Both the position numbers and the translations under genes were made by a program. Shown here piece after piece: positions 1-64,000 of a stretch of 64,000 nt of DNA (position 1 is the first letter of the stretch; each line of letters opens with the position of its first letter). The DNA is taken from the NCBI GenBank assembly GCA_963737875.1, contig CAVTUM010000002.1, positions 56,847-120,846 of the forward strand, given 5' to 3'. Source of the stretch: an uncultured Alphaproteobacteria bacterium (GTDB lineage: Bacteria; Pseudomonadota; Alphaproteobacteria; ATCC43930; CGMCC-115725). The notes below the pieces were generated by a model. It worked only from the letters and a program-made list of their open reading frames with translations, did not search any database and had not been told where the DNA came from.

Positions 1-848
1 CCCGCGCGCCAGGTCGGCATCGCGGCGATCTCGCGCCACGCCGGGTCGTCGCCCGGCTCGACCCAGTAGTTCAGGATGTAGCCGAGATCGGCGAGCGGGT
101 CGCCCTGGGTGCACATATCCCAATCGAGCACCGCCGCGATCCTGGCGGGATCGGCGGTGTCGAGCAGGCAGTTGTCGAGCCGGTAATCGTTGTGCAATAG
201 CGCCGCCGCGCCCGATCGCGGCAGATGCGCCGCGAGCCAGTCGAGCACCGGCGCCATCGTGGCGGCCGAGCGCTCCGCCGCTTCGCCGCCCCGCGATGCG
301 TGCCAGCGCTTCGTCCAGCCGGAGAGCTGGCGCTCCATAAACCCTTCGGGCCGGCCGAGATCATCGAGACCGACATCGGCCGGCGGCACCAGATGCAGGT
401 CGGCAAGCGCATCGATCAGTGCCTCACCGATGCGGCGGTTGAGATCGGGCCGGCCGGCGAATTCGGCCGGGATATCGTCGCGGATGACAAACCCATGCCG
501 CCGCTCCTCGACGATGAACACCGCGCCGAGAATGCTTTCGTCTTCGCACAACAGCAGGCTGCGCGGCGCCAGCGCGAACTGTCGATAGAGGCGCGATAGC
601 ACCCGGTGCTCGCGCCGCATGTCATGCGCGCCCGGCGGGATGGGGCCGAGCGGCGGCCGGCGCAGAACAAACTCGCGGTCTCCAAACCTGAGCAGATAGG
701 TCAGGTTAGCCTTGCCGCCGTGAAACTGGCCTACCGAAAGAGGTCCCTCGGCGCCAGCAAGATTGGCGCGCAGATACGGCTCCAGCCGTGCGGCGTCGAC
801 ACGCTCATCGGGCCGCTCCGCGATCAGTTCGGCCGCTTCGAGGTTCAT
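1..848 (-). CDS. Phosphotransferase family protein (APH/choline-kinase-like), 3-prime end beyond window start
   Basis: Manual minus-strand translation from ATG (complement of 846-848): MNLEAAELIAERPDERVDAARLEPYLRANLAGAEGPLSVGQFHGGKANLTYLL...HNDYRLDNCLLD...LDWDMCTQGDP; typical Brenner/APH motifs (HNDxxxxN, DWD). Not in ORF track because it runs off the edge. Confidence 0.8.
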   Translation of the reverse strand, partial: MNLEAAELIAERPDERVDAARLEPYLRANLAGAEGPLSVGQFHGGKANLTYLLRFGDREFVLRRPPLGPIPPGAHDMRREHRVLSRLYRQFALAPRSLLLCEDESILGAVFIVEERRHGFVIRDDIPAEFAGRPDLNRRIGEALIDALADLHLVPPADVGLDDLGRPEGFMERQLSGWTKRWHASRGGEAAERSAATMAPVLDWLAAHLPRSGAAALLHNDYRLDNCLLDTADPARIAAVLDWDMCTQGDPLADLGYILNYWVEPGDDPAWREIAAMPTWRA

Positions 849-859
849 CCGCCGCGTCC

Positions 860-2062
860 CTACTTCCGCAATTCCACCCGCGCGACCGCCCGGCGGTGCA
901 CTTCGTCCGGCCCATCGACCAGCCGCATGATCCGCGAGCGGGCCCAGGCATAGGCGAGGCCGAAATCCTGGCTGACGCCGGCGCCGCCATGCGCCTGGAT
1001 GGCGCGATCGATCACCGCCAGCAGCATCTTTGGCGCCACCACCTTGATCATCGCGATCTCGGCCTGCGCCCCCTTGTTGCCGACCGTGTCCATCATGTAG
1101 GCGGCCTTGAGGGTCAAGAGGCGCGACTGCTCGATCTCCATCCGCGAGTTGGCGATCCATTCGCGGATCACCCCCTGATCAGCGAGCGGCCGGCCGAAGG
1201 CGACGCGGCTTTTGACGCGGGCCACCATCGCCTCGAGCGAGCGCTCGGCGAGGCCGATCATCCGCATGCAATGGTGGATGCGCCCCGGCCCGAGCCGCCC
1301 CTGCGCGATCTCGAAGCCGCGCCCTTCGCCGAGCAGAATGTTCTCGATCGGCACCCGCACATCCTTGAAATCGACTTCGGCGTGGCCGTGCGGCGCGTCG
1401 TCATAGCCGAACACGGTCAAGGGCCGCATGACCGTGACGCCCGGTGTGTCGCGCGGCACCAGGATCATCGATTGCTGCTGATGGCGCGGCGCATCCGGGT
1501 CGGTCTTGCCCATCAGGATGAAAATTTTGCAGCGCGGGTCCATCGCGCCCGAGGTCCACCATTTGCGGGCGTTGATCACATAGCTGCTGTTGCCCTCGCG
1601 GGTGATGCGCGCCTCGATATTGGTGGCGTCGGACGAGGCGACGGCCGGCTCGGTCATCGCGAAGGACGAACGGATTTCGCCCGCCAGCAGCGGCTTCAGC
1701 CACTGTTCCTGCTGCGCCGGCGTTGCGTAGCGCACCAGCGTTTCCATGTTGCCGGTGTCGGGCGCCGAGCAGTTGAACACCTCTGGCGCGATCGGTGACC
1801 GCCCCATGATCTCGCACAGCGGCGCATATTCGAGGTTGGTCAGCCCGGCCCCCATCTCGGATTCCGGCAGAAACAGGTTCCACAGCCCGGCAGCGCGGGC
1901 CTTGGCCTTCAATTCCTCCATGATCGGCGGGATCTGCCAGCGGGTCGGCGCCTCGGCAAGCTGCCGCTCAAACACCTTCTCGGCGGGGTAGATATGCTCG
2001 TCCATGAACGCGCGAACCCGAGCCGAAACCTGCTTCACCTTGTCCGAAGGTTCGAAATCCAT
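860..2062 (-). CDS. Acyl-CoA dehydrogenase family protein
   Basis: 400-aa ORF; ACAD-like N-terminal, middle and C-terminal regions (…[11 protein letters not shown]…[15 protein letters not shown]…[14 protein letters not shown]). Gene pair with upstream phosphotransferase is a common arrangement. Confidence 0.9.
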
Positions 2063-2217
2063 CCCGCTTCCCCCATCGCTCTACGACCCGCGGTGCGCAG
2101 GGTAGTGCAGCGAATGCGACCGCTGCTAGAGGTCACATAATCGTTCCGATCATCGAAAGTTGACACCCATAACCGCCAAAGGGCCGGCATTTGCCGGCCA
2201 ATAGGGATACCAAAGGC

Positions 2218-2463
2218 ATGATCGAACGCGTGGGAGTTGCTGAGGCGAGAAAGCGCTTCGGGGTGTTGCTCGACCGAGTCACGAGCGGAGAGACGGTCGA
2301 GATTACGCGGCGCGGTAGACCCGTCGCCCGGCTCATTCCGGTGCAGCCGGCCTTCGATAGCGAAAAAGCTCGCCGCGCAGCTGAATCGATTATTGAAAAC
2401 GCCAAGGGCGTCACACTCGGCGGCCTCAAGATCAAAGACCTGATCAATGAGGGGCGACGATAA
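2218..2463 (+). CDS. Type II TA system Phd/YefM-family antitoxin (orphan, no toxin gene downstream)
   Basis: MIERVGVAEARKRFGVLLDRVTSGETVEITRRGRPVARLIPVQ is the canonical Phd/YefM/VapB N-terminal fold signature; alternative start at 2191. Next gene is a convergent oxidoreductase, so no cognate toxin ORF. Confidence 0.7.
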   Translation: MIERVGVAEARKRFGVLLDRVTSGETVEITRRGRPVARLIPVQPAFDSEKARRAAESIIENAKGVTLGGLKIKDLINEGRR

Positions 2464-2481
2464 GATACTCAGCTGCATCCC

Positions 2482-3509: not shown

Positions 3510-6422
3510 TCAGGAATGCTCGCTCCGGGCGAGCGGGCGCTGGGTCAGTGGGCCTGATCCCAACTGGTGGCCCAGCCGGTTTCGACGACGAGCGGCACCG
3601 ACAACTCGCAATGTGGCGCGCAGGCGGCCTCCATCACCTCTTTGACCAGAGCGGCGGTGGCCTCGATTTCGCCCTCCGGGAGTCTCGAACAGCAATTCGT
3701 CGTGCACTTGCAGCAGCATGCGCGCCTGCAGCCCGGCGCGGCGGAGGGCAGCAGGCAGGCGGCCCATCGCTCGCTTGATGATGTCGGCGGCGGAACCTTG
3801 TAAGGGCGCGTTGATCGCCTGGCGCTCGGCGCCGGCGCGCCGCGCCGGGTTGGCCTCACGGATGCCGGGAATAAAGCATTTGCGTCCGAAAATCGTCTCG
3901 ACATAGCCGGTGCGACGCGCGTCGGTCTTGATCCGCTCCATATAGGCGCGGATGCCGGGGAAACGCTCGAAATAGGCCTTGATGTAGGCGGCCGCCTCGC
4001 TTTGCGGCACGCCGATCTGGTTGCCGAGACCGAACGCGCTGATGCCGTAAAGGATGCCGAAATTGATCGCCTTGGCACGCCGCCGGGTCAGCGCATCCAT
4101 CTGGTCGAGCGGCACGTTGAAGACTTCGCTGGCGGTCGCGGCGTGAATGTCGTGTCCGGCGAGAAACGCCTCCTTCAGCGCCGGAATATCCGCGACATGC
4201 GCCGCGAGGCGCAGTTCGATCTGGCTGTAATCCGCCGACAGCAGCAGGTTTCCCGGCTCGGCGACAAAGGCGCGGCGGATTTTGCGGCCCTCCTCGGTGC
4301 GCACCGGGATGTTCTGCACGTTGGGATCGGTCGAGGAAAACCGGCCGGTCGTCGTCGCGGTCAGCACAAAAGTCGTATGCACCCGGCCGTCATGGCTGTC
4401 GATCTGGCCGCCGAGCGCGTCGGCATAGGTCGATTTGAGCTTGGTCAGCTGGCGCCATTCCAGCACCTGGGCCGGCACCGGATGCAGCGGGCTCAATTGT
4501 TCGAGGATCGAGGCATCGGTGCCATAGGCGCCGGTCTTGCCCTTTTTGCCGCCGGGCAGTTGCAATTTCTCGAACAGCACGTCGCCCAGCTGCTTTGGCG
4601 ACCCGATGTTGAATTCGCTTCCGACATCGCGCCAGATTCCGGTTTCCAGCTCGGCGATACGGCGTGCGAAATCGCGCGACAATTCGGCGAGCGCATCGCG
4701 ATCGACCTTGACGCCGTGGTCTTCCATCTCGGCGACGGCCGGCACCAGCGGGCGCTCGATGGTCTCGTAGAATGCGGTCATGCGCTCGCGCACCAGCCGC
4801 GCCTTTAGCAGCATGTGCAGGCGCAACGCGGCATCGGCCCGCTCGGCGGCGAAATCGCGCCCCGTCGTGGTCGCGACCTCGGCGAACGCGATCAGGCTTT
4901 TGCCGGTGCCGAGGATTTCCTTCACCGGCGTCAGATTGTGCTCGAAGGCAAGCCGGGTCAGTTCCTCGATCGAATGCTCGATCTGCCCGCCATCGAGCAC
5001 ATACGACATCAGCATCGTGCAGTCATAGGGGCGCAGCGCGATGCCGTGGCGGCGCAGCAGATGCGCCATGCCTTTCATGTCGTGGCCAATCTTCAGAACG
5101 CCGCGGTCTTCGAGCAATGGCTTGAGGCGCGCCAGCGCCACTTCCGGCGTCAGCGTGCGGACGGTTTCAGCCGCTTCAAGCAGCCCCGCCGCGCGATGCC
5201 CGAGCGGTACATAAGCCGCGAACCCCGGCGCCAGGGCCAGCGCCAGCCCGGCAAGCGCCGGCCGCGTCCCGGCGACGACACTCGACGCCACCCACAGCGC
5301 CACCGACCCGGCCTGTTCGGCCGCCTCGATCCAATGGTCGAGACCTTCGACCGTATCAACCACCGCGTAGGTCCGGGGCTCGGAGAACCGCGGGATATCC
5401 GGAATAATCGGCTCGCTCGGCCCTACGGGAGCCGACGAAGTCAACGGTACGCTGATCGCCAGCCGCTTTTCGATGCGCGAGCGCAGCGCCCGCAACTCCA
5501 TCTCATCGAGAAACGGAAACAGCTTTTCGGGATCGTAAGGCTGCACGCGCAGCGCCGAGAGCGGGCACGGCAAGGGCACAGCGTCGTCGAGCTTGACCAG
5601 CACCTTCGACATCCGCGCCTTGGCCGCGTTGTCTATCAGTGCCTCACGGCGCTTCGGCTGCTTGATCTCGTTCGCGCGCGCCAGCAGCGACTCCAGGTCG
5701 CCATAGGTGTTGATCAGTTCGGCCGCCGTCTTGACGCCGATGCCGGGTACACCGGGCACGTTATCGGTGCTGTCGCCGCACAGCGCCTGCACTTCGATGA
5801 CCTTGTCCGGCCCGACACCGAATTTCTCGCGGACTTCGGCCTCGCCGATCGGCCGGTCGGTCATCGGGTCGCGCATCATCACCCGGTCGTCGGCGACGAG
5901 CTGCATCATGTCCTTGTCGGACGAGAGGATCGTCACCTTGGCGCCGGCCTCGATCGCGTGGCGCGTGTAGGTCGCGATCAGATCGTCGGCCTCGAAATTT
6001 CGCATTTCGATTTGGCAGACGCCGAACGCCTCGGCTGCCCGGCGCACATGCTCGAGCTGCGGCGCGAGATCGTCGGGCATTTCGCGCCGGTTGGCCTTGT
6101 ACTGGTCGTAGATTTCGTTGCGGAAGCTGTGCCCGGAGGCGTCGAAAATGACCGCGATATGGTCGGCGTCGGTCTCGCGCAGGTATTTGTCCAGCATGTT
6201 GCTGAAAATCATCACGACTTCGGTCGCCATCCCGTCCGATTTGCGCTGAAAGCGCTCGGCCTTGGGGTCGCGCGCCCGCGCGAAATAGGCACGGAAGATG
6301 AAGCCGGAGCCGTCGATCAGGAATACATGATGCGGCACCGCGGACGGCGGCGGCGCGGCCGACTCAGCGCTCGAATCCGGGGCGGGGCGCTCGGCGACGA
6401 TCGGGGCGATCGCATCATCCAT
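3510..6422 (-). CDS. polA: DNA polymerase I; C-terminal ~45 codons out of frame (single +1 nt near 3680)
   Basis: 970-aa ORF with 5-3 exonuclease (HVFLIDGSGFIFRAYFA), 3-5 exo and polymerase domains up to motif C (QVHDELLFE). The conserved C-terminus PEGEIEATAALVKEVMEAA...VPLVVETGWATSWDQAH is found in another frame (ORF 3545..4078). Confidence 0.9.
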   Translation of the reverse strand: MDDAIAPIVAERPAPDSSAESAAPPPSAVPHHVFLIDGSGFIFRAYFARARDPKAERFQRKSDGMATEVVMIFSNMLDKYLRETDADHIAVIFDASGHSFRNEIYDQYKANRREMPDDLAPQLEHVRRAAEAFGVCQIEMRNFEADDLIATYTRHAIEAGAKVTILSSDKDMMQLVADDRVMMRDPMTDRPIGEAEVREKFGVGPDKVIEVQALCGDSTDNVPGVPGIGVKTAAELINTYGDLESLLARANEIKQPKRREALIDNAAKARMSKVLVKLDDAVPLPCPLSALRVQPYDPEKLFPFLDEMELRALRSRIEKRLAISVPLTSSAPVGPSEPIIPDIPRFSEPRTYAVVDTVEGLDHWIEAAEQAGSVALWVASSVVAGTRPALAGLALALAPGFAAYVPLGHRAAGLLEAAETVRTLTPEVALARLKPLLEDRGVLKIGHDMKGMAHLLRRHGIALRPYDCTMLMSYVLDGGQIEHSIEELTRLAFEHNLTPVKEILGTGKSLIAFAEVATTTGRDFAAERADAALRLHMLLKARLVRERMTAFYETIERPLVPAVAEMEDHGVKVDRDALAELSRDFARRIAELETGIWRDVGSEFNIGSPKQLGDVLFEKLQLPGGKKGKTGAYGTDASILEQLSPLHPVPAQVLEWRQLTKLKSTYADALGGQIDSHDGRVHTTFVLTATTTGRFSSTDPNVQNIPVRTEEGRKIRRAFVAEPGNLLLSADYSQIELRLAAHVADIPALKEAFLAGHDIHAATASEVFNVPLDQMDALTRRRAKAINFGILYGISAFGLGNQIGVPQSEAAAYIKAYFERFPGIRAYMERIKTDARRTGYVETIFGRKCFIPGIREANPARRAGAERQAINAPLQGSAADIIKRAMGRLPAALRRAGLQARMLLQVHDELLFETPGGRNRGHRRSGQRGDGGRLRATLRVVGAARRRNRLGHQLGSGPLTQRPLARSEHS

Positions 6423-6633
6423 GGGCGGCTCCTTCTTCCGCGCCGGCCGCGGCGCCGGCTGTGTCGGCCGAATGCGCCCCCGCGCGGTTGACGAACAGGC
6501 GCGAGCAATACGGGCATTCGACCTGCCCGCTCGGCGCCAGGTTCAAATAAACCCGGGGATGGCCCATCGGGCCGCCACCGCCATTGCAGGCCGCCACCAT
6601 CTGATCGATCTCGATGGTCTCGAAAGGTGTCAT
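6415..6633 (-). CDS. Zinc-finger (zf-CHCC-like) domain protein
   Basis: MTPFETIEIDQMVAACNGGGGPMGHPRVYLNLAPSGQVECPYCSRLFVNR; small conserved alphaproteobacterial Zn-ribbon protein. Start chosen at internal Met (6631-6633) of longer ORF. Confidence 0.55.
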   Translation of the reverse strand: MTPFETIEIDQMVAACNGGGGPMGHPRVYLNLAPSGQVECPYCSRLFVNRAGAHSADTAGAAAGAEEGAAHG

Positions 6634-9928: not shown

Positions 9929-11793
<1,865 letters not shown>

Positions 11794-20112: not shown

Positions 20113-20163
20113 ATTGGGGTGCGGAAATGACGATGAAGTGGGAGCATCCAGGCAGATCGCGGT

Positions 20164-20832: not shown

Positions 20833-20843
20833 AGCCTTTCTGC

Positions 20844-22419: not shown

Positions 22420-23492
<1,073 letters not shown>

Positions 23493-27977: not shown

Positions 27978-27991
27978 CAAGCGTAATCATC

Positions 27992-46119: not shown

Positions 46120-46740
46120 TCAGCCGAACGGGTTGAGCGCCTTCAGGCGGGCCGACCAGCCATGCCGGCCAAGCTCGCGCCGCACCACCGCCATATCCGT
46201 CACCCAGTTCAGCTGCAGCACGCGACGCAAGCCGCGGTGCGGGTAATGGCCGTGAAACGACGCCTCACTGCGGCGGAATGCGACCATCGTGCCAGCCACC
46301 GGCGGCACCTCCACGGCATAGTCATCAAGGTCCCTGGCGCTGCGCAGAACCCGCAGCCGCCCCCCCGCCGCATCCCACCCGTCATTGAGGTAGAGCAGCA
46401 CAGTAATCAGCTTGGTCGACGAATCGGTATGGATGCGGCCGTCCTTGCCGTCGCTCTGGCCGCGCACCGTGATCATCGTCGGACGCCCGTCGAGGTCGAT
46501 CGTGAACTTGCCCTCGATCGCCCGGCGCAGAGCGTCACCTTCGAGTTCCTCGGCCAGTGCTGTAAAGGAGGCGCCGCCCGATAGTGAGGTCAACGGGTAG
46601 CTGCCGTGGCCGGCCACCGCCGGATAATCAGCGAACAAGGCGGGCAGGTGCTCGCGGTTGAGGAACCCCTCGACGATCACATAATCATAGGGGTCGCTGC
46701 GCAGCGGCGCGGCCCGCAACCGGTCCAAGTCGAGAATCAT
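46120..46740 (-). CDS. 2OG-Fe(II) oxygenase family protein
   Basis: MILDLDRLRAAPLRSDPYDYVIVEGFLNREHLP…GRIHTDSSTKLITVLLYLNDGWDAAGGRLRVL…HGHYP (HxD…H). Confidence 0.6.
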   Translation of the reverse strand: MILDLDRLRAAPLRSDPYDYVIVEGFLNREHLPALFADYPAVAGHGSYPLTSLSGGASFTALAEELEGDALRRAIEGKFTIDLDGRPTMITVRGQSDGKDGRIHTDSSTKLITVLLYLNDGWDAAGGRLRVLRSARDLDDYAVEVPPVAGTMVAFRRSEASFHGHYPHRGLRRVLQLNWVTDMAVVRRELGRHGWSARLKALNPFG

Positions 46741-46915
46741 GCGCGGCCCTGCCCGTGATGGCGCCCAAAGCGCGCCATCGTATCGCGGTGAGGGGTGTCG
46801 GCAACACCCGGTTTGGATCGCGCGGCGACACGCCATTTCCGCTCGCCCGCGGCTCGCCGCTGAGCTAGAGGTAGCGCGCCGCGCGAACGGCATTCCGCAA
46901 CCGTCGGATAGGGTC

Positions 46916-48892: not shown

Positions 48893-50164
48893 GTGGAACC
48901 CGGAGGGTGCTTAGTGGCTGATATAGCGCTGCTTTTTCAGGCTGACGATCCGCGGCTTCGCACGACGGTCGGGGTACGTGACGGTGAAACGATCGTGTTG
49001 AGCAACTCCGCGGCCGGGATCGGGCTCTATGGTCCATACGTCGATCTGCCGAGCGGCCGGTATCGCGCAAGGATCCGCTTCGCGGAAGCCCACGAAACGG
49101 CCGGCTCCGTCACCATGGATGTCTGTGAAGAGGCCGCGACAAAGATCATCAGTGCGGCCGAATTTGATCTCTCCAATCTGGCGCCGGGGAAGCGCGAAAT
49201 AGAACTGGCCTTTTCGCTCGATCGAGCCGCATCGCTGTGTGAAGTCCGGCTGTTCTGCGCCGCGGCGGTATCCGCGACGATCACCCGTATCGAGATTTTG
49301 TTTCTTGATTTCGAGGCGTCACTGGTTGGCTGGCTGGACCGCCTGGAGCGTCTTACGCACGGCGGACGAGCCACTTACGTCGGGAACAATCGCATCCTGG
49401 CAAGACTGGTCGTCGGAGACACGATCTTCGCCTTCCTGATGCCTGCCAATGATCTGCTAATCGTGCCGGCGACGATTGCACGCGGCGAGTATGAACCGGC
49501 GTTGACGCGGTATTTTACGCGGACCGTTGCGGGCACGGACCATTGCCTGGATGTCGGCGCAAACTACGGCTATTATACTTGTCTGATGGCGAGCCTCACG
49601 CCGGGTGGCAAGGTTCTCGGGATCGAGCCTGATGAGGCGATTTTCGCGTTGATGCGCGATAATCTTTACATAAATACCTTAGAACCGAGTGCGAAGGCGC
49701 TGCATGCCGCCGTGGCCGATCGCTCCGGACGATTGACGTTGCATCGCCGGTCGACCCGTTCCGGCAACACCAGCATCATCAAGTACACAAGTGACTATAC
49801 CGCCAGCGCCGGGGAACAGGCGGCGATGCCATTTGAGGTGGAATGCTTTGCGATCGATGATCTGTTGCCGCGTTTTGATGGCCGGATTGACATCGCCAAG
49901 ATCGATGTCGAAGGTGCGGAACCGCTGGTATTCCGCGGCGCTCGGCGAACAATTCACGAAAACCCGCAGATCAGGATAGTCATGGAATGGTCGCCTGGTC
50001 AGATTCGTGCAGCGGGTTTCGACGTAGGCGAATTTGTCACCGAGCTTACGAGTTTGCGGCTCGATGCCGCCATCATCGGTTCCGCCGGACCGGAGCCGGT
50101 TGCGTTAGCCGATCTCAGCCACACTTCTTACCATTCAGGCATTCTGCTCACGCCGAGATCATAA
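48893..50164 (+). CDS. FkbM-family methyltransferase with ~180-aa N-terminal domain of unknown function
   Basis: C-terminal 240 aa: DVGANYGYYTCLMASLTPGGKVLGIEPDEAIFALMRDNLYIN…IAKIDVEGAEPLVFRGAR (Methyltransf_21/FkbM). Start codon uncertain (possible GTG at 48914). Confidence 0.8.
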   Translation: MEPGGCLVADIALLFQADDPRLRTTVGVRDGETIVLSNSAAGIGLYGPYVDLPSGRYRARIRFAEAHETAGSVTMDVCEEAATKIISAAEFDLSNLAPGKREIELAFSLDRAASLCEVRLFCAAAVSATITRIEILFLDFEASLVGWLDRLERLTHGGRATYVGNNRILARLVVGDTIFAFLMPANDLLIVPATIARGEYEPALTRYFTRTVAGTDHCLDVGANYGYYTCLMASLTPGGKVLGIEPDEAIFALMRDNLYINTLEPSAKALHAAVADRSGRLTLHRRSTRSGNTSIIKYTSDYTASAGEQAAMPFEVECFAIDDLLPRFDGRIDIAKIDVEGAEPLVFRGARRTIHENPQIRIVMEWSPGQIRAAGFDVGEFVTELTSLRLDAAIIGSAGPEPVALADLSHTSYHSGILLTPRS

Positions 50165-50217
50165 TCTTCGCTAACACGTCACGGGCGTCCCCTATAATCA
50201 TCTGTTGCGTATCGCAG

Positions 50218-53200
50218 TTACGCCGACGTCCACTCAGCGGCACGTTCAAACACCACAGTGCTTGCCGGATCCTCATATTCCAAGACATAGGACTGCAAGC
50301 AGATCTGAAGGCCGGCATCAACCGAGAGCGTGAACTCGACACCGTCTTCAGCTCGTTCAATGACGAACTCCGTGTCCAGCAAGCAGCCGCTGGACGGGTT
50401 CACCCCCCAACTTAGCGTAACTTCATGTAGTACTTTCTCACCCTGGTTACTTGTCACGCGCAGATGCGCGCGTCCAGCTTCAATCCCCTCGCTGGTTCCG
50501 AAGCCGCGCAGACGGTGCGGACCGGGGGTGATACCTATATAGGGCCCGAAGGTCAGCACGCCCTCACGCCCGGTGGATTGGATATATCCATTGGCGTCAA
50601 AGCAACCGACCCGCGTCCTGAGCATTCCATCCTGCGAGCGGAACTGCCGCCGCTGTCGGGGAAAGTCAATATCAGGCCCGGTTTTCTGGCCGCGATGCAC
50701 GTCAAACTGGTGATGCAGGTGGAGCGAATAGAGCATATCGAAAAGCCGCCTCGACGATCGCTCGTAGGACGCTGCCGAAGAGATACCAGTCGCGCGGTCG
50801 ACCGCCGCTGTGACACGCGGGGCATGAGTTTCAAGTTCGACGACGAGAGCGGCGATCCCCACCGCCAAATCGCGGGCGCTACAGCCCGGCAGACGCAGAA
50901 CGGCGTCTTCGAGTTCGTCAAACACGGGGAGTGGCGTCACCGCTACCGGAACGCCTGAAACCAGGCAGAGGCGCGCCGCGCCGCTCGCGGAATTGCCGGT
51001 GCTGGGCTGGTAGGGCAACACAATCAGGTCGGCCTCGCGCAAATTGGCGAGGCTCTCATCATCCGTGAGGAAGTCGTTGATCAACGTCACCCGGTCCTGC
51101 ACACCCAGGGAGACGGCGAGTTCCCTGGCTCTCTGGATTAGATCACTGGACACAGGCTCGGGGTATTCCGCATTGACCAATAGGAGATGACCATCGAAAC
51201 CAGCTTCGGACATCAGAGCAAAGGCTTCGATCAGCTCAATCAGGCCTTTGTGTGGAAGAAAAAAGCCGTAACTTGCGATGACTCGCCGCGCGCCGAAGCG
51301 GCGGCGATCTCGGCGGGATGCGGCCAAGTCCGACCTATGGCTTGGATAAGGATGCGGGAACAACGTGACGTTTTCGACGACACCCATATCCTTCAAGCGG
51401 TTCATGTCCGCGATTGAATGCACCAGCACTCTTGAACACCGCGCCAGGAGGGGAGCGATGATTGCCAGTCGCTTAGTCTCGTCCGGATCGTTTTCGTGCG
51501 TTGCGTGGGTTACAAAAATGACGATACGGCCCTGTTTGATCAATTCTTCGATAAAGGTTCGTAGTTCGTGGAAAATAAAGAACGCGTAGTTGAATTGGAT
51601 AACGACAACATCACACGCTGCGGTCGAAATATCGGACAGAAGTCGGTTGAGGCTGCCGTCTGAGCGTGTCCAGTTTCGGGTTACGTTAGGCTCGTCATAC
51701 ATTTCCCGTTCGTCACTAAATGGAGCGAAGATGCGAACATCGGTGCGATTTTCTAAAAGATATTTCGAGTAGGAGGCAACGCCGCAACGAATGTTCCATG
51801 TCGTCACCCAGGCAACTTTCATGTCTGGGCATTGCCAGTCGGCAAAGCTGATGAGGTCCGCGACGTATTGTTGCAGCCGCCAGGCGACATGATCCCACGA
51901 GAAGGACGCTCGAAGGGTATCGATGGCTGCCGTGGTTCGCCGCTGGATCTCCCTTCGCGGCGCGCTGCGGACCTGTCGCATCACGGCAGCCAAATGATCG
52001 ACGCTGGGCTCAGCCCAGACTGATCCTGGCAGGTTGAAATGGCTTCTGGCGCGCGCGAATTTGAAGTCGACGAGCCAGGCCGTCTCGTCACTGCAGAAGT
52101 CAAGATTGCCGCTCCAACCCGTGGCAATTACGGGCAGCCCGTGCACCATCGCTTCCGCCGCAGGCAGGCCGAATCCTTCTGCCCTGCTTGGAGCGACAAG
52201 GGCATGGCACTGGAGGTAGAGCGCATTGATTTCAGCGTCGGACAAATCATCATCAATCAAGACGACATCCGGGTAATCGATATCCTCTGCCTGGAGACGG
52301 GCCAGATCTTCGGCCACGGTGTTGTGCGGATTGGGGGCGGTTTTTATGATGAGCGATACGTCTTCCTGGCGGCGAAATGCCTTGCCATAAGCCGTTAACA
52401 GGCAGTCGACCCCCTTGCGCGGCAGGCACGACGAGATGTGCAGGAAACGATATGCCTTAGCCTGGATGCGGAAATTTGAATTTGGCCGGACCCGATCCCA
52501 GTGATCAATTCCATTGCCTGTCACCGACGTAGGCAGTCGAATCCCATGGTCGATCATCACCTTCTGAACGTGTCGTGACAGACACGTGAGGCCGTTCAAG
52601 CCCGTATTGAAATCGTCCAGCCACTGTTGCGGGAAACCGGCTTCCTCCCAGGCGTAATGATGGAACAGATTAATCGCTCCATTCATCCGTGTGACCCTTG
52701 GCGGATAAACAAGGCGGCTGACGACGGTGAATTCGGCGTCGGCGTCGGCGTCGCGTCCGCGGCTGTGCAAGCGCGCGATGTCGGGAGTTCGGCTTAAGAA
52801 CTCGGGATCAGGGTCGAAGTCGCCTGGTCCTTCCGTCGAAAACAACGATGTATCGACCCCCTGACGGTTTAGGGCCCGAGCGGTTTCCCGATTGACCAGC
52901 GCGAGGCTGTAGCTGGAGTTGAATGGCCCCTCCACACGCCATGTCGGTCGAACAAGCGCCGTAGACGTGGCGTGGGCCGTCGCAGTATCGAGATTGGTCT
53001 GGAGCAGCATACCAGTCGCTGTTCTGCCAGCCTCGTCGACGTCATATTGATCGAGAACCGCTGAGACCGAGCCGACGGCACGAATATACGCGAAATGGGG
53101 CAGGCTCGCGGCGATCAGAGGATGACGCGCCGCCCGCTGTGACAATCGCTGCTCCAGGTTGTCGATTAACCGACTCGCCGTTCGATCCCAGGAAAACTCC

Positions 53201-54345
53201 CGCGCCCGGGCCAGGCCAAACGCAACGATTTCGGCCCGATAGTCAGGTTGCTCCAGCACGAAGAGTATCTTATCGCACAGCTTGACAGCATTATCAGGGT
53301 CGAAGAGCAGGTCCGATCGGCCGACGACCTCCGGCAGACTTGTCCGATCCGATGACAATACCACTGCACCGGACGCCATCGCCTCCAGCACCGGCAGCCC
53401 AAATCCTTCGCTGAACGAAGGAAATATGAATATCACACAATTTCTATACAGAGCGCGCAGCTGAGGTTCTGAAAGGAAGTCTGTAAAGACAAACTTGTTC
53501 TTATGGTCGATCCCTAAATCATCCGCAAGGCGTTGCATTCGCTCGTGATCTGTCAGATTTATTTTTCCGACAAATACGATCTTTAACTTCGTTTTGTGTG
53601 TTTCCGGCAACAGCGAAAATGCACGGACGATGATTTCTGGGTTTTTTCTAGGTTCAAGCGATCCAACGTATAGTAAATATCCTTCGTGTATCCCCATGCG
53701 TAAGAGTAATTCATCATCATTTTGGTTGTGATCTTCTTTTTCTAAAGTGTATTCCGATGCGGCCGAAATATTACAAACATTATGTGCGGAAAACTCTCTG
53801 ACAATGCATTTTTCTGTGTATTCGGAATTAGAAAAGATAAGATCGCAATCGAGCAATTGGCGAAGTTTTTCTAAATACCATGAGCTGGCGACATCATTGC
53901 CAATATAGAGATGACGATCGTAGAAGGGGATCAGGTCATGGGCAATTACGCAATTTTCGTAAACGGAATTGCGGAACGATGACGATACGATGTCATCGTC
54001 GAACCCTTCGATGATGGACGGATTGAGCACGAAATCGGGCCGCAGCAGCGCAAGGCTATACCCCCTGATATGTTCCGAGACCTTTCTTTTCCAGGTGTTG
54101 GCGAGATTGGAGAAATTGATCTTATCAAAAACAGAGAAAACAAAAAAACGATTTGCCGGAAGCAGATCCAAAAAGTAGGCCCGGATCTCGTCCACCTCTG
54201 CCTTTGACTGGTTTCTTACGGCAATCCAGATTTCGTGATCCCCTCGATTGCGCAGCACTGCACGGGTCAATGAACTTGCATATCGGCCTATCCCTCTAAA
54301 TTTGCTTAGTCCTTGGATGGCTTGTAGATCAATGAGGAGCCGCAT
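50218..54345 (-). CDS. Multidomain glycosyltransferase: three GT4 (GT-B, EX7E) modules plus C-terminal ~170-aa non-catalytic domain
   Basis: 1375 aa intact; three repeats of GT4 C-terminal motif (…FIFPSFSEGFGLPVLEAMASG…; …LVAPSRAEGFGLPAAEAMVHGLPVI…; …LIVLPYQPSTGNSASGAARLCLVSGVPV…). Start codon overlaps stop of upstream gene by 17 nt. Confidence 0.85.
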   Translation of the reverse strand: MRLLIDLQAIQGLSKFRGIGRYASSLTRAVLRNRGDHEIWIAVRNQSKAEVDEIRAYFLDLLPANRFFVFSVFDKINFSNLANTWKRKVSEHIRGYSLALLRPDFVLNPSIIEGFDDDIVSSSFRNSVYENCVIAHDLIPFYDRHLYIGNDVASSWYLEKLRQLLDCDLIFSNSEYTEKCIVREFSAHNVCNISAASEYTLEKEDHNQNDDELLLRMGIHEGYLLYVGSLEPRKNPEIIVRAFSLLPETHKTKLKIVFVGKINLTDHERMQRLADDLGIDHKNKFVFTDFLSEPQLRALYRNCVIFIFPSFSEGFGLPVLEAMASGAVVLSSDRTSLPEVVGRSDLLFDPDNAVKLCDKILFVLEQPDYRAEIVAFGLARAREFSWDRTASRLIDNLEQRLSQRAARHPLIAASLPHFAYIRAVGSVSAVLDQYDVDEAGRTATGMLLQTNLDTATAHATSTALVRPTWRVEGPFNSSYSLALVNRETARALNRQGVDTSLFSTEGPGDFDPDPEFLSRTPDIARLHSRGRDADADAEFTVVSRLVYPPRVTRMNGAINLFHHYAWEEAGFPQQWLDDFNTGLNGLTCLSRHVQKVMIDHGIRLPTSVTGNGIDHWDRVRPNSNFRIQAKAYRFLHISSCLPRKGVDCLLTAYGKAFRRQEDVSLIIKTAPNPHNTVAEDLARLQAEDIDYPDVVLIDDDLSDAEINALYLQCHALVAPSRAEGFGLPAAEAMVHGLPVIATGWSGNLDFCSDETAWLVDFKFARARSHFNLPGSVWAEPSVDHLAAVMRQVRSAPRREIQRRTTAAIDTLRASFSWDHVAWRLQQYVADLISFADWQCPDMKVAWVTTWNIRCGVASYSKYLLENRTDVRIFAPFSDEREMYDEPNVTRNWTRSDGSLNRLLSDISTAACDVVVIQFNYAFFIFHELRTFIEELIKQGRIVIFVTHATHENDPDETKRLAIIAPLLARCSRVLVHSIADMNRLKDMGVVENVTLFPHPYPSHRSDLAASRRDRRRFGARRVIASYGFFLPHKGLIELIEAFALMSEAGFDGHLLLVNAEYPEPVSSDLIQRARELAVSLGVQDRVTLINDFLTDDESLANLREADLIVLPYQPSTGNSASGAARLCLVSGVPVAVTPLPVFDELEDAVLRLPGCSARDLAVGIAALVVELETHAPRVTAAVDRATGISSAASYERSSRRLFDMLYSLHLHHQFDVHRGQKTGPDIDFPRQRRQFRSQDGMLRTRVGCFDANGYIQSTGREGVLTFGPYIGITPGPHRLRGFGTSEGIEAGRAHLRVTSNQGEKVLHEVTLSWGVNPSSGCLLDTEFVIERAEDGVEFTLSVDAGLQICLQSYVLEYEDPASTVVFERAAEWTSA

Positions 54346-56719
54346 CCTTAAATTCTTTCGTGCTGGATGGTGGTCTCTCGATGCGTGCCCATCGAACCGG
54401 GACAGCGAGAGTCATATCGCGCAAAATCAGGTTTCTCCGCACCAGCGGATCGTCTTCGGCCAATGCGTGGCCCGGAAAGACAAGCTGCCCCAGGAGGGAA
54501 TGTCCGCGGGGCTTGACAGCTCCTTTTGTCATTGGGGCGGCGGGGCTCTCCAATCGGGTGTCGGTCGGACTGTCGTGGGGCGAACAATCGGGGGGCGAAC
54601 TGTCAGCGGAGAGCCCCTCCTTATCGCGAATTACCTCCATCACATAAGCGAGATGGTGAGCAGCATCGGGATGGTCCGGCGATAATATCAAGCCCCGGCG
54701 GTACGCGAGCGCTGCCTTCGCCAGCGCTCCGCACTCTTTGTATGCATGGCCATATTGTACCCAAAGACGCGGCTGATGGTTGGGCTTGACGGTCAGAAGG
54801 GCGCCGTAAAGCTCAACAGCTTCCACCCAATCGCGTCGTTTGGCGGCCGTCTGGGCCTGCCTCAACATCCGCCTCCAATAGATCATCTGGAATGGCGGGA
54901 GCCTTAGGAGTTGCGGGACCTTCACATCCGCAGGCTTCCAGGCGCATGCTTCTTCCCAGGCCGCGGCCTCTAACAAGGCCTGGTCCCGCTCTGTCCTGAT
55001 TGCCGTCTCTCGCTGCACGCTCGCCCGGCGCTCGTCTTCCACGCGGGCTAATTCCTCTCCCGACCGTGCCAATGCGGCGGCCAAGGCTTCGTTCCGCCGG
55101 GCCGCCTGCCGCACCTCCTCGTCGAGCGCCGCTTCAGCCTCGCGTGTGGCCTGACATTCCGCGTCCGACCGAACCAAGGCGACGGCCAGAGCTTCATTCC
55201 GCTCGGCCGCCTTTTGCAGTTGCGTCGTCAGCATGGCCTCGGCCTCGCGCACGGCCTGACATTCCGCGTCCAACCGAACCAAGGCGACGGCCAGAGCTTC
55301 ATTCCGCCCGGCCGCCTTTTGCAGTTGCGTCGTCAGCACGGCCTCGGCCTCGCGCACGGCCTGACATTCCGCGTCCAACCGGGCCAGTGCGGCGGCCAGA
55401 GCTTCATTCCACTCGGCCGCCTCCTGAAGCTGCGCTGTCAGCGCGACCTCAGCCTCGCGCGCGGCCTGACATTCCGCGTCCGACCGGGCCAATGCGGCGG
55501 CCAGCGCTTCATTCCGCCCGGCCGTCTCCTGAAACTGCGCTGTCAGCGCGGCCTCGGCCTCGCGCACGGCCTGACATTCCGCGTCCGACCGGACCAACGC
55601 GACGGCCAGAGCTTCATTCCGCCCGGCCGTCTCCTGAAGCTGCGTTGTCACCGCGGCCTCGGCCTCGCGCGCGGCCTGACATTCCGCGTCCGACCCGGCC
55701 AACGCGGCGGCCAGAGCTACATTCCGCCCGGCCGCCTCCTGAAGCTGCGTTGTCACCGCGGCCTCGGCCTCGCGCGCGGCCTGACATTCCGCGTCCGACC
55801 GGGCCAATGCGGCGGCCAGAGCTTCATTCCGCCCGGCCGTCTCCCGAAGCTGCGTTGTCAGCGCGGCCTCGCCCTGTACGGCTGCCGCGCGTGCTCCGTC
55901 GGATTGCGCCAACGCGTCTTCAAGGGGCCGCAGCCGCGCCTGCAGCGTTGGAACCGCAAAATTGTCGAAAACACAGGGCGGCGCGGCAAAGATGTCGCGC
56001 CGCCAGGCTTCCTCGCCACTGACATAGAACCGGTTCAAGCCATCGAAAAGGACAAAGATGTAATTCTTGGCGAGCAGCTGCGGTTCCCAGCTCTGGTGAT
56101 TGGCAATCTGCGTATTCGGCTCGGTCGCTTCCACGACGATGATGCGGGGGCGATGTACGGTGAAGCTGGCAGGATTAAGGATATCGGCTTCCATTCCCTC
56201 GGCATCGATCTTCAAGAAGTCGACCGTGTTGTTCCCGACAAGGCCAAACAGTTGATCGAGCGTCACCCCGGGAACTGGGATGATCCTCCGGGGGATCGAA
56301 GGTTCACCGCTGATGCCACCTGTTACCCCGGAAGACAGGCCGGTGCCCTCGATAACCGTAAACAGGCAGGTCTCCCCGCTCGCTCCTACCACGCACTGCA
56401 AATTGGTATCCCGGGTCCGGGCCCGTTCGAGTTCGGTGAAATACTGAGGGTTGGGTTCAACATTGATGCCATGCCAACCGGTGTCGTAGAACCACGCGGT
56501 CACGGAATCGTGTATCGGATGCCAAGCCCCAATATCGATGTAAAACCCCTGCTCGATTTCCTGCAAGGCGCGGCGTAGGATGACATCTTCAAAGTTCTGG
56601 GCATAGCTCACCATGCCCGTCAGATAGCCGCTGGCATCCGCTCGTACGCGCGGAGAGAGGTGAAAGTTATTTGTTTGTCGCTGAAGGCAGCCGACATCCA
56701 CCTCTATATCATCACTCAC
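54329..56719 (-). CDS. FkbM-family methyltransferase fused to 8x35-aa coiled-coil repeat array and TPR-like region (candidate glycan chain terminator / molecular ruler)
   Basis: 796 aa; N-terminal FkbM domain (…FYIDIGAWHPIHDSV…FLKIDAEGMEADIL…), then AECQAAREAEAAVTTQLQEAAGRNEALAAALARSD x8, then TPR-like helices, Ser/Pro-rich tail. Confidence 0.8.
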   Translation of the reverse strand: MSDDIEVDVGCLQRQTNNFHLSPRVRADASGYLTGMVSYAQNFEDVILRRALQEIEQGFYIDIGAWHPIHDSVTAWFYDTGWHGINVEPNPQYFTELERARTRDTNLQCVVGASGETCLFTVIEGTGLSSGVTGGISGEPSIPRRIIPVPGVTLDQLFGLVGNNTVDFLKIDAEGMEADILNPASFTVHRPRIIVVEATEPNTQIANHQSWEPQLLAKNYIFVLFDGLNRFYVSGEEAWRRDIFAAPPCVFDNFAVPTLQARLRPLEDALAQSDGARAAAVQGEAALTTQLRETAGRNEALAAALARSDAECQAAREAEAAVTTQLQEAAGRNVALAAALAGSDAECQAAREAEAAVTTQLQETAGRNEALAVALVRSDAECQAVREAEAALTAQFQETAGRNEALAAALARSDAECQAAREAEVALTAQLQEAAEWNEALAAALARLDAECQAVREAEAVLTTQLQKAAGRNEALAVALVRLDAECQAVREAEAMLTTQLQKAAERNEALAVALVRSDAECQATREAEAALDEEVRQAARRNEALAAALARSGEELARVEDERRASVQRETAIRTERDQALLEAAAWEEACAWKPADVKVPQLLRLPPFQMIYWRRMLRQAQTAAKRRDWVEAVELYGALLTVKPNHQPRLWVQYGHAYKECGALAKAALAYRRGLILSPDHPDAAHHLAYVMEVIRDKEGLSADSSPPDCSPHDSPTDTRLESPAAPMTKGAVKPRGHSLLGQLVFPGHALAEDDPLVRRNLILRDMTLAVPVRWARIERPPSSTKEFKDAAPH
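55040..55900. repeat. Coding tandem repeat, ~8 copies of a 105-bp unit (within the methyltransferase-coiled-coil gene)
   Basis: Near-identical units GGCCTGACATTCCGCGTCCGACCGGGCCAATGCGGCGGCCAGAGCTTCATTCCGCCCGGCCGTCTCCTGAAGCTGCGTTGTCAGCGCGGCCTCGGCCTCGCGC…; unit starts seen at ~55148, 55252, 55357, 55462, 55568 etc. Confidence 0.8.
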
Positions 56720-57292: not shown

Positions 57293-59153
57293 TTATCGTG
57301 CGTCAGCATGGTCCGCGAAGTGTTCAACGGACCGGGAGCCCAGAACCACTCGCTCCGGAGGAAGAATCACGGTTGCGGTAGTGCCAGCGCCGAGTTTGCT
57401 GCTAAGCGCAAGCCGACCGCCGTGCAGTTCCACAATTTTCTTGGCTAGCGGCAGCCCCAACCCCGTACCTTGATGATGTCGATTCAACGAGGAATTGACC
57501 TGCTCAAACGGCTTTAGCACGCGACTGAGATCATGTAAGGCAATACCCATTCCCGTATCAGAAACGGTCAGCGCCAAACCAAATAATGGATCGAACCGGC
57601 TTGAGACCGTGATCCTTCCCCCGGCCGGAGTGAACTTGACGGAGTTGACGATCAGGTTGATCAGTACCTGTTTGATCTTGCGTTCATCGCCGCGCAGCAA
57701 CATTGGATCGTCACCTAGGGAAACGTCCTGAAAGAGCCCTGCCTCACGAATAGGCCCGGCGGTCAGCTCAGCAACTGACTGCATGACTTTGCGTAGATCA
57801 AACACGCTCTCGTTAAGCTCAATCTGGCCGGCAGCAGCCTTCGAGAAATCGAGAATATCGTTGATAATCCCCAAAAGAAGCATGCCACTGCCATGAATGT
57901 CACCGATAAATCCCTGGTATTCCCGGTTTCCAACCGGCCCCAGCTCTTCACGCAGAATCATCTCAGAGAAGCCGATAATTGCATTCAGTGGCGTGCGCAG
58001 TTCGTGGCTCATTGTCGCCAAAAAATCCGATTTGGCCTGGTTGGCCACCTCGGCCTCATCTTTGGCGAGGCGTAACGCCTCATAGGCTTCCTCGCGGTCC
58101 CGTAGTGAGTCTCTGACTTGAACAAGAGCGACCTGCTCACGGCGGGCTCGCCGGAGCGCGATCAGGCATAGCAGCAGAAGCCCAAACGCGGCCGCCGCGC
58201 CGATTACAATATAACCCCTTATCGTGGTCAACCATTCCAGCAGTACCGATGCTTCGGTTCGGCTTACGGTAACATAGACCGGGTAATCGGCGACCCGTCG
58301 ATAGGCGATAATCTGCCCGCTGCGATCCAACAGCGAGCCTGTAACGATCAAGCCGCCCTGCGATCCCCCTGTCGTAATTCCTTCAGCCAGCGGACTGGAT
58401 CGCTGCAAGATTGGCGCGTCCGCAGTATCATCGTCGGGATAACGCGCAAGTCTGGTGCCGTCCTCCCTGAAAATTCCGGCCGTATAATTTGCGGGACCGC
58501 CGAGAAGAGAATTGTAGAAAGAGGCTAAATACTTTCCGGAGACCGCGACGATGGTAATTCCACGAAACTGGCCCTCTGGGCCCTCACGCCGGCGCGTCAC
58601 CGTGAAATAGGGGCGAAAACGATCTTGATCGAGGCTGCGCGCGCGCAATGCCCAAACAAAGGTTTGCAAATTGGTGTTCTGCAACGCCCGAAAATCGGCT
58701 CGGTCCGAGTGATCGAGATTGTGGTCGACCGGGTAAACTTTGGCGCTGACGAGTTCTCGTCCATTGGCATCCAGAACCCAGGCCGCCGCAACCTGCGGCA
58801 GACTCTTTAATCTGCTGAGCGAGCTGCTCATGCAGCGTCTGTTCCTGGTTGTGAACTTCCTGATCACTTAAGCGGGACAGCAGATCGTTAATGCGCGCGG
58901 CAACGAGCTGGTGCGTATCCAGCACCTTGATCGTATTTTCAGCGGCGACAGCAACCGTTTCGACAAGTGAGTCTTTCGCCGCAACAAGATGATTTTGATA
59001 AGATAAATAGCCGCCAGCAGCCGCAAAACACAGCGGCGCCACGATTATGCTAACGAGGAGAAGCCGGAGCATCCGAATTGCACCAGAAGGTGCCAATTGC
59101 TTAAGCATCGCCGCCGCAGGACTGGTTTCGGTTAGATGATCTCGCACATTCAA
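57293..59153 (-). CDS. Sensor histidine kinase (two TM helices, periplasmic sensor domain, HisKA, HATPase_c); one +1 frameshift near 58815
   Basis: H-box SDFLATMSHELRTPLNAI, N/G boxes (…LINLIVNSVKFTP…DTGMGI…GTGLGLPLAKKIVELHGG); N-terminal TM + sensor part is in ORF 58584..59153. Confidence 0.8.
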
Positions 59154-62159: not shown

Positions 62160-62160
62160 C

Positions 62161-63471
62161 CTACTCCTCCAGCCGGGCCAGCCGCGCGGCCAGCCGGCGC
62201 ATCAGATAGTCGCGGGAGGCGGCGTCTTCGATCCCCTCGACCGCTTCCTGCAAAAACCCCGCTATCAGCATGCGGCGCGCCTCGTCGTCGGGGATGCCGC
62301 GGGTCCGCAGATAGAACAATGCCGCCTCGTCGAGATCGCCGACCGTCGCGCCGTGGGCGCATTTGACGTCGTCGGCGAAGATTTCAAGCTCGGGCTTGGT
62401 GTCGATGGCCGCGCGATTGCCGATGATGAGGTTGCGGCTGGTCTGTTGCGCATCGGTCTGCTGCGCATGTTCGCGGACGGTGATCCGGCCCTGAAACGCG
62501 CCATGCCCGCGACCCGCCGCAACGCCCTTGACCAGTTCGCGCGTCTGCCCGCCGCAGGCCGCGTGCTCGACGGCCGTGACAAAATTCGCCTCGTCGGCGC
62601 CGCCGACGATAAAGGCGCCATCGAGCCGGCAGCGCGCCTTGTCGCCGACGATCCGGACATTCGCCTCCTGCCGCACCCGGCGCCCGGTCAGCAGCAACGT
62701 GAAACTGTCAAAACTGGCGCCGGCCGCGAGCGTCGCATCGAGTTGCGCCAGATGCACCGCCTCGGCGGCCTCCTCGACCAGAACCGCCCGGCTCAGCGCG
62801 GCGCCCTTGCCGAGCCGCACGGCAACGACATCGTTGCGCCAGTAGCGGCCGTCACCGGCATAGGTTTCGATAATCCGGGCGCGACTGTTCTCGCCGAGCG
62901 CGATCAGGCTGCGGGTGTGAAACGAACCCGCGGATACCCCGGAACCGAGATGGACGATTTCGACCGTTCGATCGAGCGCCACACCTGCCGCGATATCGAA
63001 CACATAGCCGTCTGCGAAGAAAGCCGTGTTCAACGCGGCAAACGGGCCGCTGCCCGCATCCTCGATGGCGGCTTGCACCAGATCGGCCCGGTCGCGCATC
63101 GCCTGCGCCGTCGAGCCAAACCACACACCAGCCGGCAGGTCGATACTGGACAAATTCGAAGCGAACCGCCCATCAACCAACACCAGCCGTGCCGTGCCCC
63201 GCGGCAGCGCCAGCGCCGCGAGGCGCTCCTGCAGTACGGTTTCGTCCGTAGCACCGGCGCGCGCCGGCAGCATCGGCCGCTGCTGCAGCGGCTGCAAATC
63301 GAGGTAGCGCCAGCCTTCGCTGCGCCGGCTGGGAAACCCGAGTTCGGCAAAGCGGGTCATCGATTGCTGCCGCCGCGCCGCCAGCCAGCCCGGCTCGGCG
63401 ACATCGCGCGCAAAGCACGCGAGATAATCGCGCGCCTCCGGCTTCGCCGGAAATTCGACGACCGCGCTCAT
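62161..63471 (-). CDS. sufD: Fe-S cluster assembly protein SufD
   Basis: 436 aa; C-terminal …FADDVKCAHGATVGDLDEAALFYLRTRGI… conserved SufB/D beta-helix. Confidence 0.9.
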   Translation of the reverse strand: MSAVVEFPAKPEARDYLACFARDVAEPGWLAARRQQSMTRFAELGFPSRRSEGWRYLDLQPLQQRPMLPARAGATDETVLQERLAALALPRGTARLVLVDGRFASNLSSIDLPAGVWFGSTAQAMRDRADLVQAAIEDAGSGPFAALNTAFFADGYVFDIAAGVALDRTVEIVHLGSGVSAGSFHTRSLIALGENSRARIIETYAGDGRYWRNDVVAVRLGKGAALSRAVLVEEAAEAVHLAQLDATLAAGASFDSFTLLLTGRRVRQEANVRIVGDKARCRLDGAFIVGGADEANFVTAVEHAACGGQTRELVKGVAAGRGHGAFQGRITVREHAQQTDAQQTSRNLIIGNRAAIDTKPELEIFADDVKCAHGATVGDLDEAALFYLRTRGIPDDEARRMLIAGFLQEAVEGIEDAASRDYLMRRLAARLARLEE

Positions 63472-63485
63472 CCGCGCCCTCCCTT

Positions 63486-63607
63486 GTCATTCCGGGATCG
63501 CCCAACGGGCGAGGCCCGGAACCCAGGAACACGAACGGTGCCCGGTCGTCTGCGGCCGGTGTTCATGGATTCCGGGTTCACTGCTGCGCAGTGCCCCGGA
63601 ATGACAG
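63486..63607. repeat. Palindromic MITE-like repeat family 3, copy 2 (sufC-sufD intergenic)
   Basis: GTCATTCCGGGATCGCCC…CCCGGAACCCAGGAACACGAACGGTGCCCGG…GTGTTCATGGATTCCGGGTTCA…GCCCCGGAATGAC. Confidence 0.65.
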
Positions 63608-63637
63608 GAAAAGGTTTGCCAGCCATTGCACAAGCGC

Positions 63638-64000
63638 TCACGCAACTTCGCCGAGCGTGCCGTAGCCGCGCTTCTCGAGTTCGACGGCGAGGGACTTGTC
63701 GCCGCTTTCGACGATGCGCCCGTCTTGCAGCACGTGCACATGGTCGGGTTCGACATAGTCGAGCAGGCGCTGGTAATGGGTGATCATCACGATCGAGCGG
63801 TCGCGCGCGCGCAGTTCGTTGACGCCTTTCGCGACAACCCGCAGCGCGTCGATGTCGAGGCCGCTATCGGTCTCGTCGAGGATCGCGAGGCGCGGTTCCA
63901 GCATCGCCATCTGGAAGATTTCGTTGCGCTTTTTCTCGCCGCCGGAAAACCCGACATTGACCGCGCGCTGCAACAAATCATCACCGATATCGAGGAGTTT
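63638..64000 (-). CDS. sufC: Fe-S cluster assembly ATPase SufC (C-terminal part; 5-prime end beyond window)
   Basis: …[48 protein letters not shown]…[12 protein letters not shown] (ABC signature, Walker B, H-loop). Confidence 0.9.

Follow-up and report, generated by a model that had tools for sequence, protein, structure and literature searches.

Forty single-base insertions and deletions (indels) break the reading frames of 15 conserved genes on a contig from an uncultured alphaproteobacterium, and these indels are most likely an artefact, with no evidence for a mutator lineage or for pseudogenisation. The stretch of DNA analysed here, hereafter the window, is 64,000 nucleotides (nt) long and corresponds to positions 56,847 to 120,846 of contig CAVTUM010000002.1 (assembly GCA_963737875.1). 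A preliminary description of its sequence had reported about 30 frameshifts and offered two origins for them, sequencing errors of the homopolymer type or a recent burst of slippage mutations. The observation holds up, and the frameshifts are more numerous than first reported. Judged from sequence comparisons, the indels almost certainly are an artefact of some kind rather than mutations in living cells, and the specific mechanism that we favour, with a probability of about 0.7, is the collapse of co-existing strains in a metagenome consensus.

Single-base events in 15 conserved genes

The window, with a G+C content of ~65%, was segmented with a codon-usage Viterbi model that bars in-frame stops, the frames were stitched, and the continuity of the resulting proteins was then checked against protein families. 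The catalogue comprises 34 extra and 6 missing bases (binomial p = 8e-6), and every one of the 40 events is exactly 1 nt in size. Thirty events were placed by DNA alignment to orthologous loci, seven by continuity with a protein family or homologue, and three by frame reading only. The preliminary description thus undercounted the events, while its gene list is borne out, since they fall in those same 15 genes. Its statements that the events are mostly +1 and patchy hold as well: 85% are extra bases, and the variance/mean ratio in 2-kb bins is 3.7, with 17/32 bins empty (P < 5e-5). Event density is ~0.6 frameshifts per kb, concentrated in patches. The affected genes and their events are as follows.

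3549..6437, minus strand, polA: extra base near 3682, with the last ~45 codons shifted
9929..11793, plus strand, thiC: extra bases at 10002, 10339, 10432, 11092 and 11112
14468..15740, minus strand, family III CoA-transferase: extra base near 15368
21798..22345, minus strand, CMD-like gene: extra bases at 21981 and 22189, missing bases at 21960, 22071 and 22258
22421..23399, plus strand, aldo/keto reductase AKR1: extra base at 23294
23523..24565, plus strand, luciferase-like monooxygenase LLM1: extra bases near 23643 and 24127
26756..27986, plus strand, M20 amidohydrolase of the hydantoinase/carbamoylase family: extra bases at 27044, 27261, 27270, 27669, 27727, 27740, 27763 and 27978, missing base at 27629
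27992..28912, plus strand, NMT1-type substrate-binding protein: extra bases at 28075, 28265 and 28399
34520..36172, plus strand, M81/MlrC-type peptidase: compensated pair, extra base near 35132 and missing base near 35162
36063..37230, minus strand, amidase: extra base near 36870
37254..38493, minus strand, LivK-type binding protein: net +1 near 38450, in the signal-peptide region
38590..39580, minus strand, aldo/keto reductase AKR2: extra bases at 39348, 39271, 39024 and 38660, missing base at 38613
39667..40768, plus strand, BNR/Asp-box repeat protein: extra base at 40092 (CC to CCC)
46739..48660, plus strand, fused ABC permease: extra bases near 47949 and 48220
57293..59108, minus strand, sensor histidine kinase: extra base near 58802

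In ten of these genes (polA, thiC, the CoA-transferase, LLM1, M20, NMT1, M81, the amidase, and both aldo/keto reductases), a single unbroken Pfam match spans the junctions of the stitched protein. For polA, the DNA_pol_A profile is matched from 2 to 380 of its 381 positions in one stretch, across a transition from frame 0 to frame 1 that reads QVHDELLFET before the junction and LPEGEIEATAALV after it. The CoA-transferase is matched by CoA_transf_3 over its entire length (1-366 of 366), LLM1 by Bac_luciferase (1-309 of 314) over both of its junctions, AKR2 by Aldo_ket_red (2-288 of 291), and the amidase by the Amidase profile (40-444 of 445), its frame transition running from GGSSAGSASAVAAGV to VDTALGTDTGGSVR. 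Frame reading was also done for the CoA-transferase and LLM1. The stitched NMT1 protein matches both Pfam NMT1 and NMT1_2.

DNA alignments give the events a finer position. When thiC is aligned with three Stellaceae thiC loci, exactly five 1-nt insertions are specific to the window, and the stitched ThiC is 92% identical over 100% of its length to the intact 619-amino acid (aa) ThiC of Stellaceae metagenome genomes. The CMD events were placed by pairwise alignment to the orthologue on a Stellaceae genome contig (L009), and five single-base corrections yield one 182-aa open reading frame (ORF) that is colinear with the 182-aa protein of that contig; a Protein Data Bank (PDB) search with the CMD-like protein returned no match. 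The same contig served to place the AKR1 event, since its orthologue, used as a tblastn query, matches the window in frame 2 for residues 1-291 (92% identity) and in frame 3 for residues 293-325, and DNA alignment gives position 23294. The AKR2 events were placed by multiple alignment with four metagenome loci (L030, L012, L014, and L016). Compared with four orthologous loci, the BNR gene has a window-specific 1-nt insertion at 40092, where blastx passes from frame 1 to frame 2 (40091-40092), and the LivK gene, whose signal peptide and mature protein are read in successive frames, has a window-specific surplus of 4 nt (3+1).

Three cases deserve separate mention. In the M81 peptidase, the ORF stays open and ten residues are replaced, while the Viterbi path takes a detour. 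Homologues read PAKGIFELIGEIE, which agrees with the detour reading PTAGIFSLLDDIEE and not with the in-frame PTARHLLAARRHRE; over this stretch they have GIFELIGEIE where the detour reading has GIFSLLDDIE. M81 homologues in the PDB were too distant to decide on the compensated pair, which library homologues confirmed. In one such library protein (P0457), the sequence is garbled (PDRFPDPAGLAVHLHRAGQEHLRSGRRDRG) at precisely the place where its relatives are conserved, apparently through a further frameshift error in a publicly deposited metagenome protein. In the permease, transmembrane and permease motifs continue without a break as the frame changes from 1 to 2 and then to 0, and BPD_transp_1 matches in two stretches; these events come from frame reading and their positions are good to ~10 nt. 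In the histidine kinase, one frame contains the start codon, membrane anchor, and N-terminal helix, and the remainder of the protein continues in the following frame, as judged by frame reading and codon statistics only. No NCBIfam or Pfam model spans the junctions in either the histidine kinase or the permease.

Not every change of frame in the window is an event. Those at 871, 7777, 8309/8474, 20846, 42048, and 46122 are ordinary gene boundaries, as they separate the Pfam domains of distinct genes. Several N-terminal frame detours were dismissed as well, being found either between such domains or ahead of a start codon.

The arrangement of the events is regional, with error clusters at about 9.9-11.2, 21.9-24.2, 27.0-28.4, 35.1-36.9, 38.4-40.1, and 47.9-48.3 kb. 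Clusters cross neighbouring genes and both strands (CMD/AKR1/LLM1, M20/NMT1, and LivK/AKR2/BNR), and compensated pairs, whose members are 21-47 nt apart, are found in M81, CMD, and AKR2. A regional consensus problem therefore fits better than gene-wise decay.

Intact frames in an independent assembly

Three contigs of an independent assembly, the Logan assembly of run ERR10755946, match the window. Nothing on this run was found in the literature and supplements. Two of these contigs and the first part of the third serve as controls.

49077..55197, Logan contig L008: 6121 nt, two mismatches (53176 and 54409), no gaps, no frameshift
20100..21008, Logan contig L011: 909 nt, 100% identical, no gaps
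25587..26760, first part of Logan contig L010: 1174 nt, no mismatches, no gaps, including a C7 run

Judged by these matches, the Logan run holds the same population as the window. The remaining 1894 nt of L010 are different, with 61 mismatches (3.2%) and 12 single-base gaps relative to the window. Here L010 carries an intact 407-aa M20 protein (P0169) and an open NMT1 frame, up to the end of its coverage of that gene at 28654, where the window has 12 single-base indels; the nine M20 and three NMT1 events were placed base by base against it. Divergence and indels start together at 26761, five bases past the M20 start codon, where identity drops from 100% to ~97%. In the one error cluster examined in this way, there are thus 12 indels in 1.9 kb of diverged sequence, versus none in a total of ~8.2 kb of identical sequence. 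In itself, the abrupt change in identity at 26761 points to a recombination breakpoint or a change of strain at this position, be it in the population or in one of the two assemblies.

The substitutions in the diverged segment look like real strain variation under selection. Among the 61 differences from L010, 33 are at third codon positions and 30 are synonymous. The M20 protein differs from the Logan allele by 18 amino acids, and at most of these the window has the majority residue of 119 homologues. Once corrected for its indels, M20 is 407 aa long without a stop, breaks 0/145 invariant columns, and matches PDB entry 6c0d end to end. Apart from its nine indels, this 1.2-kb gene encodes more canonical residues than the intact Logan allele does. 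Similarly, ThiC breaks 0/375 columns that are invariant in 137 homologues, in keeping with the earlier statement that the shifted segments have no extra stops or substitutions. By this measure, the affected genes keep an undiminished signature of purifying selection.

Directly upstream of thiC, at 9729-9864 on the plus strand, there is a thiamine pyrophosphate (TPP) riboswitch (RF00059), which is matched over the full model with 60 bits against a gathering score of 54.3. Since this riboswitch is intact, the thiC locus looks regulated and functional.

The frames that are intact in the independent assembly support the artefact half of the preliminary reading, as do the selection that has been kept and the regional clustering of 1-nt events. 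Its mechanism, homopolymer error or slippage, fares differently.

Sequence context and origin of the indels

The events had been described as lying in G/C runs. This is not so, since none of the 101 homopolymer runs of at least 5 nt in the window lies within 15 nt of any event, and runs found within 7 nt of an event reach 3 nt at most. The C7 run at 26446-26452, inside the identical segment, has the same length in the window and in L010, and so do seven 4-nt runs inside the error-rich segment.

The nature of the inserted bases could be assessed for 11 insertions that are resolved against L010, all in one segment. They had been described as an extra C or G in CC or GG contexts, and the inserted base is indeed G or C in 10/11 cases. 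It does not usually extend a run, however. The inserted base equals its neighbour in only 1/11 cases, when 6.2 would be expected (P = 0.001), and in 5/11 it splits a CC or GG pair with the other of these two bases (e.g., CC to CGC). Furthermore, in 8/11 cases the inserted base adjoins a third-codon base and equals a synonymous alternative of that base, versus 3.0 expected (P = 0.0026). The synonymous pairs are GGC/GGG, GCC/GCG (three times), GAA/GAG, GCG/GCA, GGG/GGC, and CTC/CTG. Outside this segment, thiC has TCGC in the window at 11092, where relatives have TCC or TCG, and AKR1 shows a like form at 23294 (CTC/CTG). Inserted bases that are unlike their neighbours and synonymous at third positions point to both alleles of a strain polymorphism having been written in tandem.

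We therefore propose the following scenario. The sample would contain a Stellaceae (Alphaproteobacteria) population in which at least two strains, differing by ~3%, occur side by side in patches of the genome. The consensus would be clean wherever these strains agree; where they differ, consensus or polishing would mishandle some of the polymorphic sites. The commonest error would be to write both alleles of a single-nucleotide polymorphism (SNP) in tandem, leaving one extra base, and less commonly a base would be dropped, giving a -1 event. As a precedent, a PacBio assembly with collapsed haplotypes is reported to have acquired indel errors, and with them apparent frameshifts, at places where the alignment of reads was disturbed by allelic variants lying close by (PMC8445201). 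We infer that the source assembly is a long-read, lightly polished one or otherwise strain-collapsed, and likewise which software step (consensus or polishing) produced the errors. A long-read source is suggested by similar Stellaceae contigs in the same archives, which bear assembler-style names (e.g., contig_33239), and by the precedent of Nanopore-only soil assemblies that were polished once (PMC12313526).

Several points weigh against strain collapse. Some events do alter short runs, the insertions at 27669, 39271, and 40092 extending runs of 1-2 nt, and the deletions at 21960 and 38613 shortening runs of 2-3 nt. The tandem pairs at 10002, 10339, and 11112 in thiC would be non-synonymous. 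The tandem-allele statistics come from 11 insertions in a single segment, and elsewhere the references are 82-92% identical, so that the inserted base is often ambiguous. The indels are no closer to visible mismatches than expected by chance. Finally, L010 is a different haplotype in the error-rich segment, which means that it shows an intact version to be present in the population, and not that the exact haplotype of the window is intact.

A second explanation, which we regard as unlikely, is that the indels are residual random long-read errors left by thin coverage or incomplete polishing, with no particular part for strain polymorphism, the patches being low-coverage stretches such as a minor-strain graph branch. 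This would explain why there are only indels with almost no substitution errors, the strong bias for insertions (34 to 6), and the patchy distribution, and two reports describe long-read assemblies whose errors are mostly gene-truncating indels (PMC8445201 and PMC12007338). That error patches coincide with divergence from the Logan strain would fit a low-coverage minor strain equally. The inserted bases argue otherwise. Random insertions would equal their neighbour in ~56% of cases, far more often than observed, and no preference for synonymous alternatives would be expected. Moreover, residual errors of the Nanopore type concentrate in homopolymers (PMC9262707), whereas no run of 4 nt or more is affected here.

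That the indels are real, because of a recent burst of frameshifts in a mutator or mismatch repair (MMR)-deficient lineage or because of the early pseudogenisation of dispensable genes, is very improbable. As in decaying pseudogenes, several events per gene are found beside intact neighbours, polA itself is frameshifted, and L010, being another haplotype in the M20/NMT1 segment, provides no direct disproof. However, indels in bacterial pseudogenes vary in size and are biased towards deletions, unlike the uniform 1-nt events seen here, 85% of which are insertions, with no stops or radical substitutions. The apparent frameshift in polA is of the same artefact-like kind as the others. Nine indels in an otherwise canonical M20, clusters that extend over several genes and both strands, closely spaced pairs of compensating events (21-47 nt), and a thiC locus that keeps its intact riboswitch all speak against real decay. 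As for a mutator, in MMR-defective Escherichia coli indel rates rise exponentially with run length and substitutions outnumber indels by ~7 to 1 in coding sequences (PMC8510543). At ~7 substitutions per indel, the five indels of thiC would predict ~15 changes at invariant positions in ThiC, and the corresponding figure for M20 is ~16; none was observed in either protein, and no event is near a homopolymer. The mutator or slippage option of the preliminary description is not supported. No mutS, mutL, or mutH gene is present within the window.

It is just as improbable that the indels are real and stem from a localised process, such as error-prone repair synthesis during recombinational import from a related strain, in which +1 insertions may be non-templated or mis-templated, may occur only in imported SNP-dense tracts, and may be too recent for selection to have purged the carriers. 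Homopolymer-length miscalls of the 454, Ion Torrent, or early Nanopore type, the artefact originally suspected, would be in line with the predominance of G and C among the inserted bases (the sequence has 65% G+C) and with the five events that alter runs of 1-3 nt, but they have very little chance of being the cause, as they are contradicted by the sequence context (no run of at least 5 nt near an event, C7 and 4-nt runs identical between assemblies, and only 1/11 well-resolved insertions extending a run). Programmed frameshifting and transcriptional slippage were rejected because there are no slippery sites and no run >3 nt at the events, and relatives have no shift at the same places.

The 15 genes should be treated as intact. 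This contig gives no ground for claiming pseudogenisation, thiamine auxotrophy, a polA defect, or a mutator phenotype. Patchy frameshifts of this kind would fragment gene calls, lower completeness and annotation, and seed protein databases with truncated fragments. Checks of ORF length miss part of the damage, as the compensated M81 pair shows: ten residues are wrong, yet the ORF remains open. We propose four marks that may help to flag strain-collapse errors in metagenome-assembled genomes (MAGs): the extra bases stay away from homopolymers, are unlike their neighbours, adjoin third codon positions, and are confined to polymorphic patches.

Neighbouring features and comparison with known systems

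Downstream of thiC, a NUDIX gene on the plus strand has an irregular start (11995-12025). Its alignment with orthologues begins only at residue 8, with 87% identity, and there is no in-frame ATG, GTG, or TTG at the expected place, a TTG being present one frame off. Either a 41st indel or an ATT start codon could account for this. Between ~50000 and 60000, G+C content is 53-58%, compared with ~65% elsewhere, and this stretch looks like an acquired island. It encodes a 1375-aa protein with two GT4 glycosyltransferase domains (50221-54345, minus strand), and it matches a Logan contig with only two mismatches and no frameshifts. Four intact ORFs on the minus strand between 60036 and 63471 (62164-63471, 60918-62159, 60451-60939, and 60036-60437), which we take to be Fe-S cluster assembly (suf-like) genes, are likewise without a frameshift; for the protein encoded at 62164-63471, the nearest Logan relative is 92% identical, hence from another strain or species. 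The 90% cluster of the protein encoded at 43579-45165 on the minus strand (P0388) includes a second, different protein of 529 aa (P0390), which could be encoded by a close paralogue elsewhere on the source contig or come from another version of the same record. In a plasmid collection, nothing was closer to the window than 73-80%, and a search of genome contigs with the flotillin gene only returned relatives at 51-58%, none closer.

Host-restricted bacteria such as Mycobacterium leprae and Sodalis have pseudogenes with several disruptions that lie beside intact neighbours, which is what the window seems to show. Real pseudogenes also carry substitutions, stop codons, and multi-base deletions. 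None of these marks is found here, and the disrupted set includes thiC with an intact riboswitch. Mutator lineages likewise accumulate many 1-nt frameshifts within a short time, but they do so with an exponential dependence on run length and with ~7-fold more substitutions (PMC8510543), neither of which is seen in the window.

The resemblance is closer to long-read bacterial genomes and MAGs that are unpolished or lightly polished, where single-base indels fragment ORFs and can be recognised because the pieces align end to end with intact homologues (PMC9262707 and PMC12007338). In those cases errors are concentrated in homopolymers, whereas here homopolymers are spared and the events occur in strain-variable patches. 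The Trypanosoma brucei Lister 427 assembly is an instructive parallel. There, the "alleles" are on homologous chromosomes, while here they would be those of co-existing bacterial strains in a metagenome, and the signature of tandem, mostly synonymous SNPs, which we derive from 11 sites in the window, was not found in PMC8445201. What that report does describe is very much alike: apparent frameshifts in conserved genes, due to errors that are almost all indels, which arise where allelic variants are close together and vanish once the alleles are separated.

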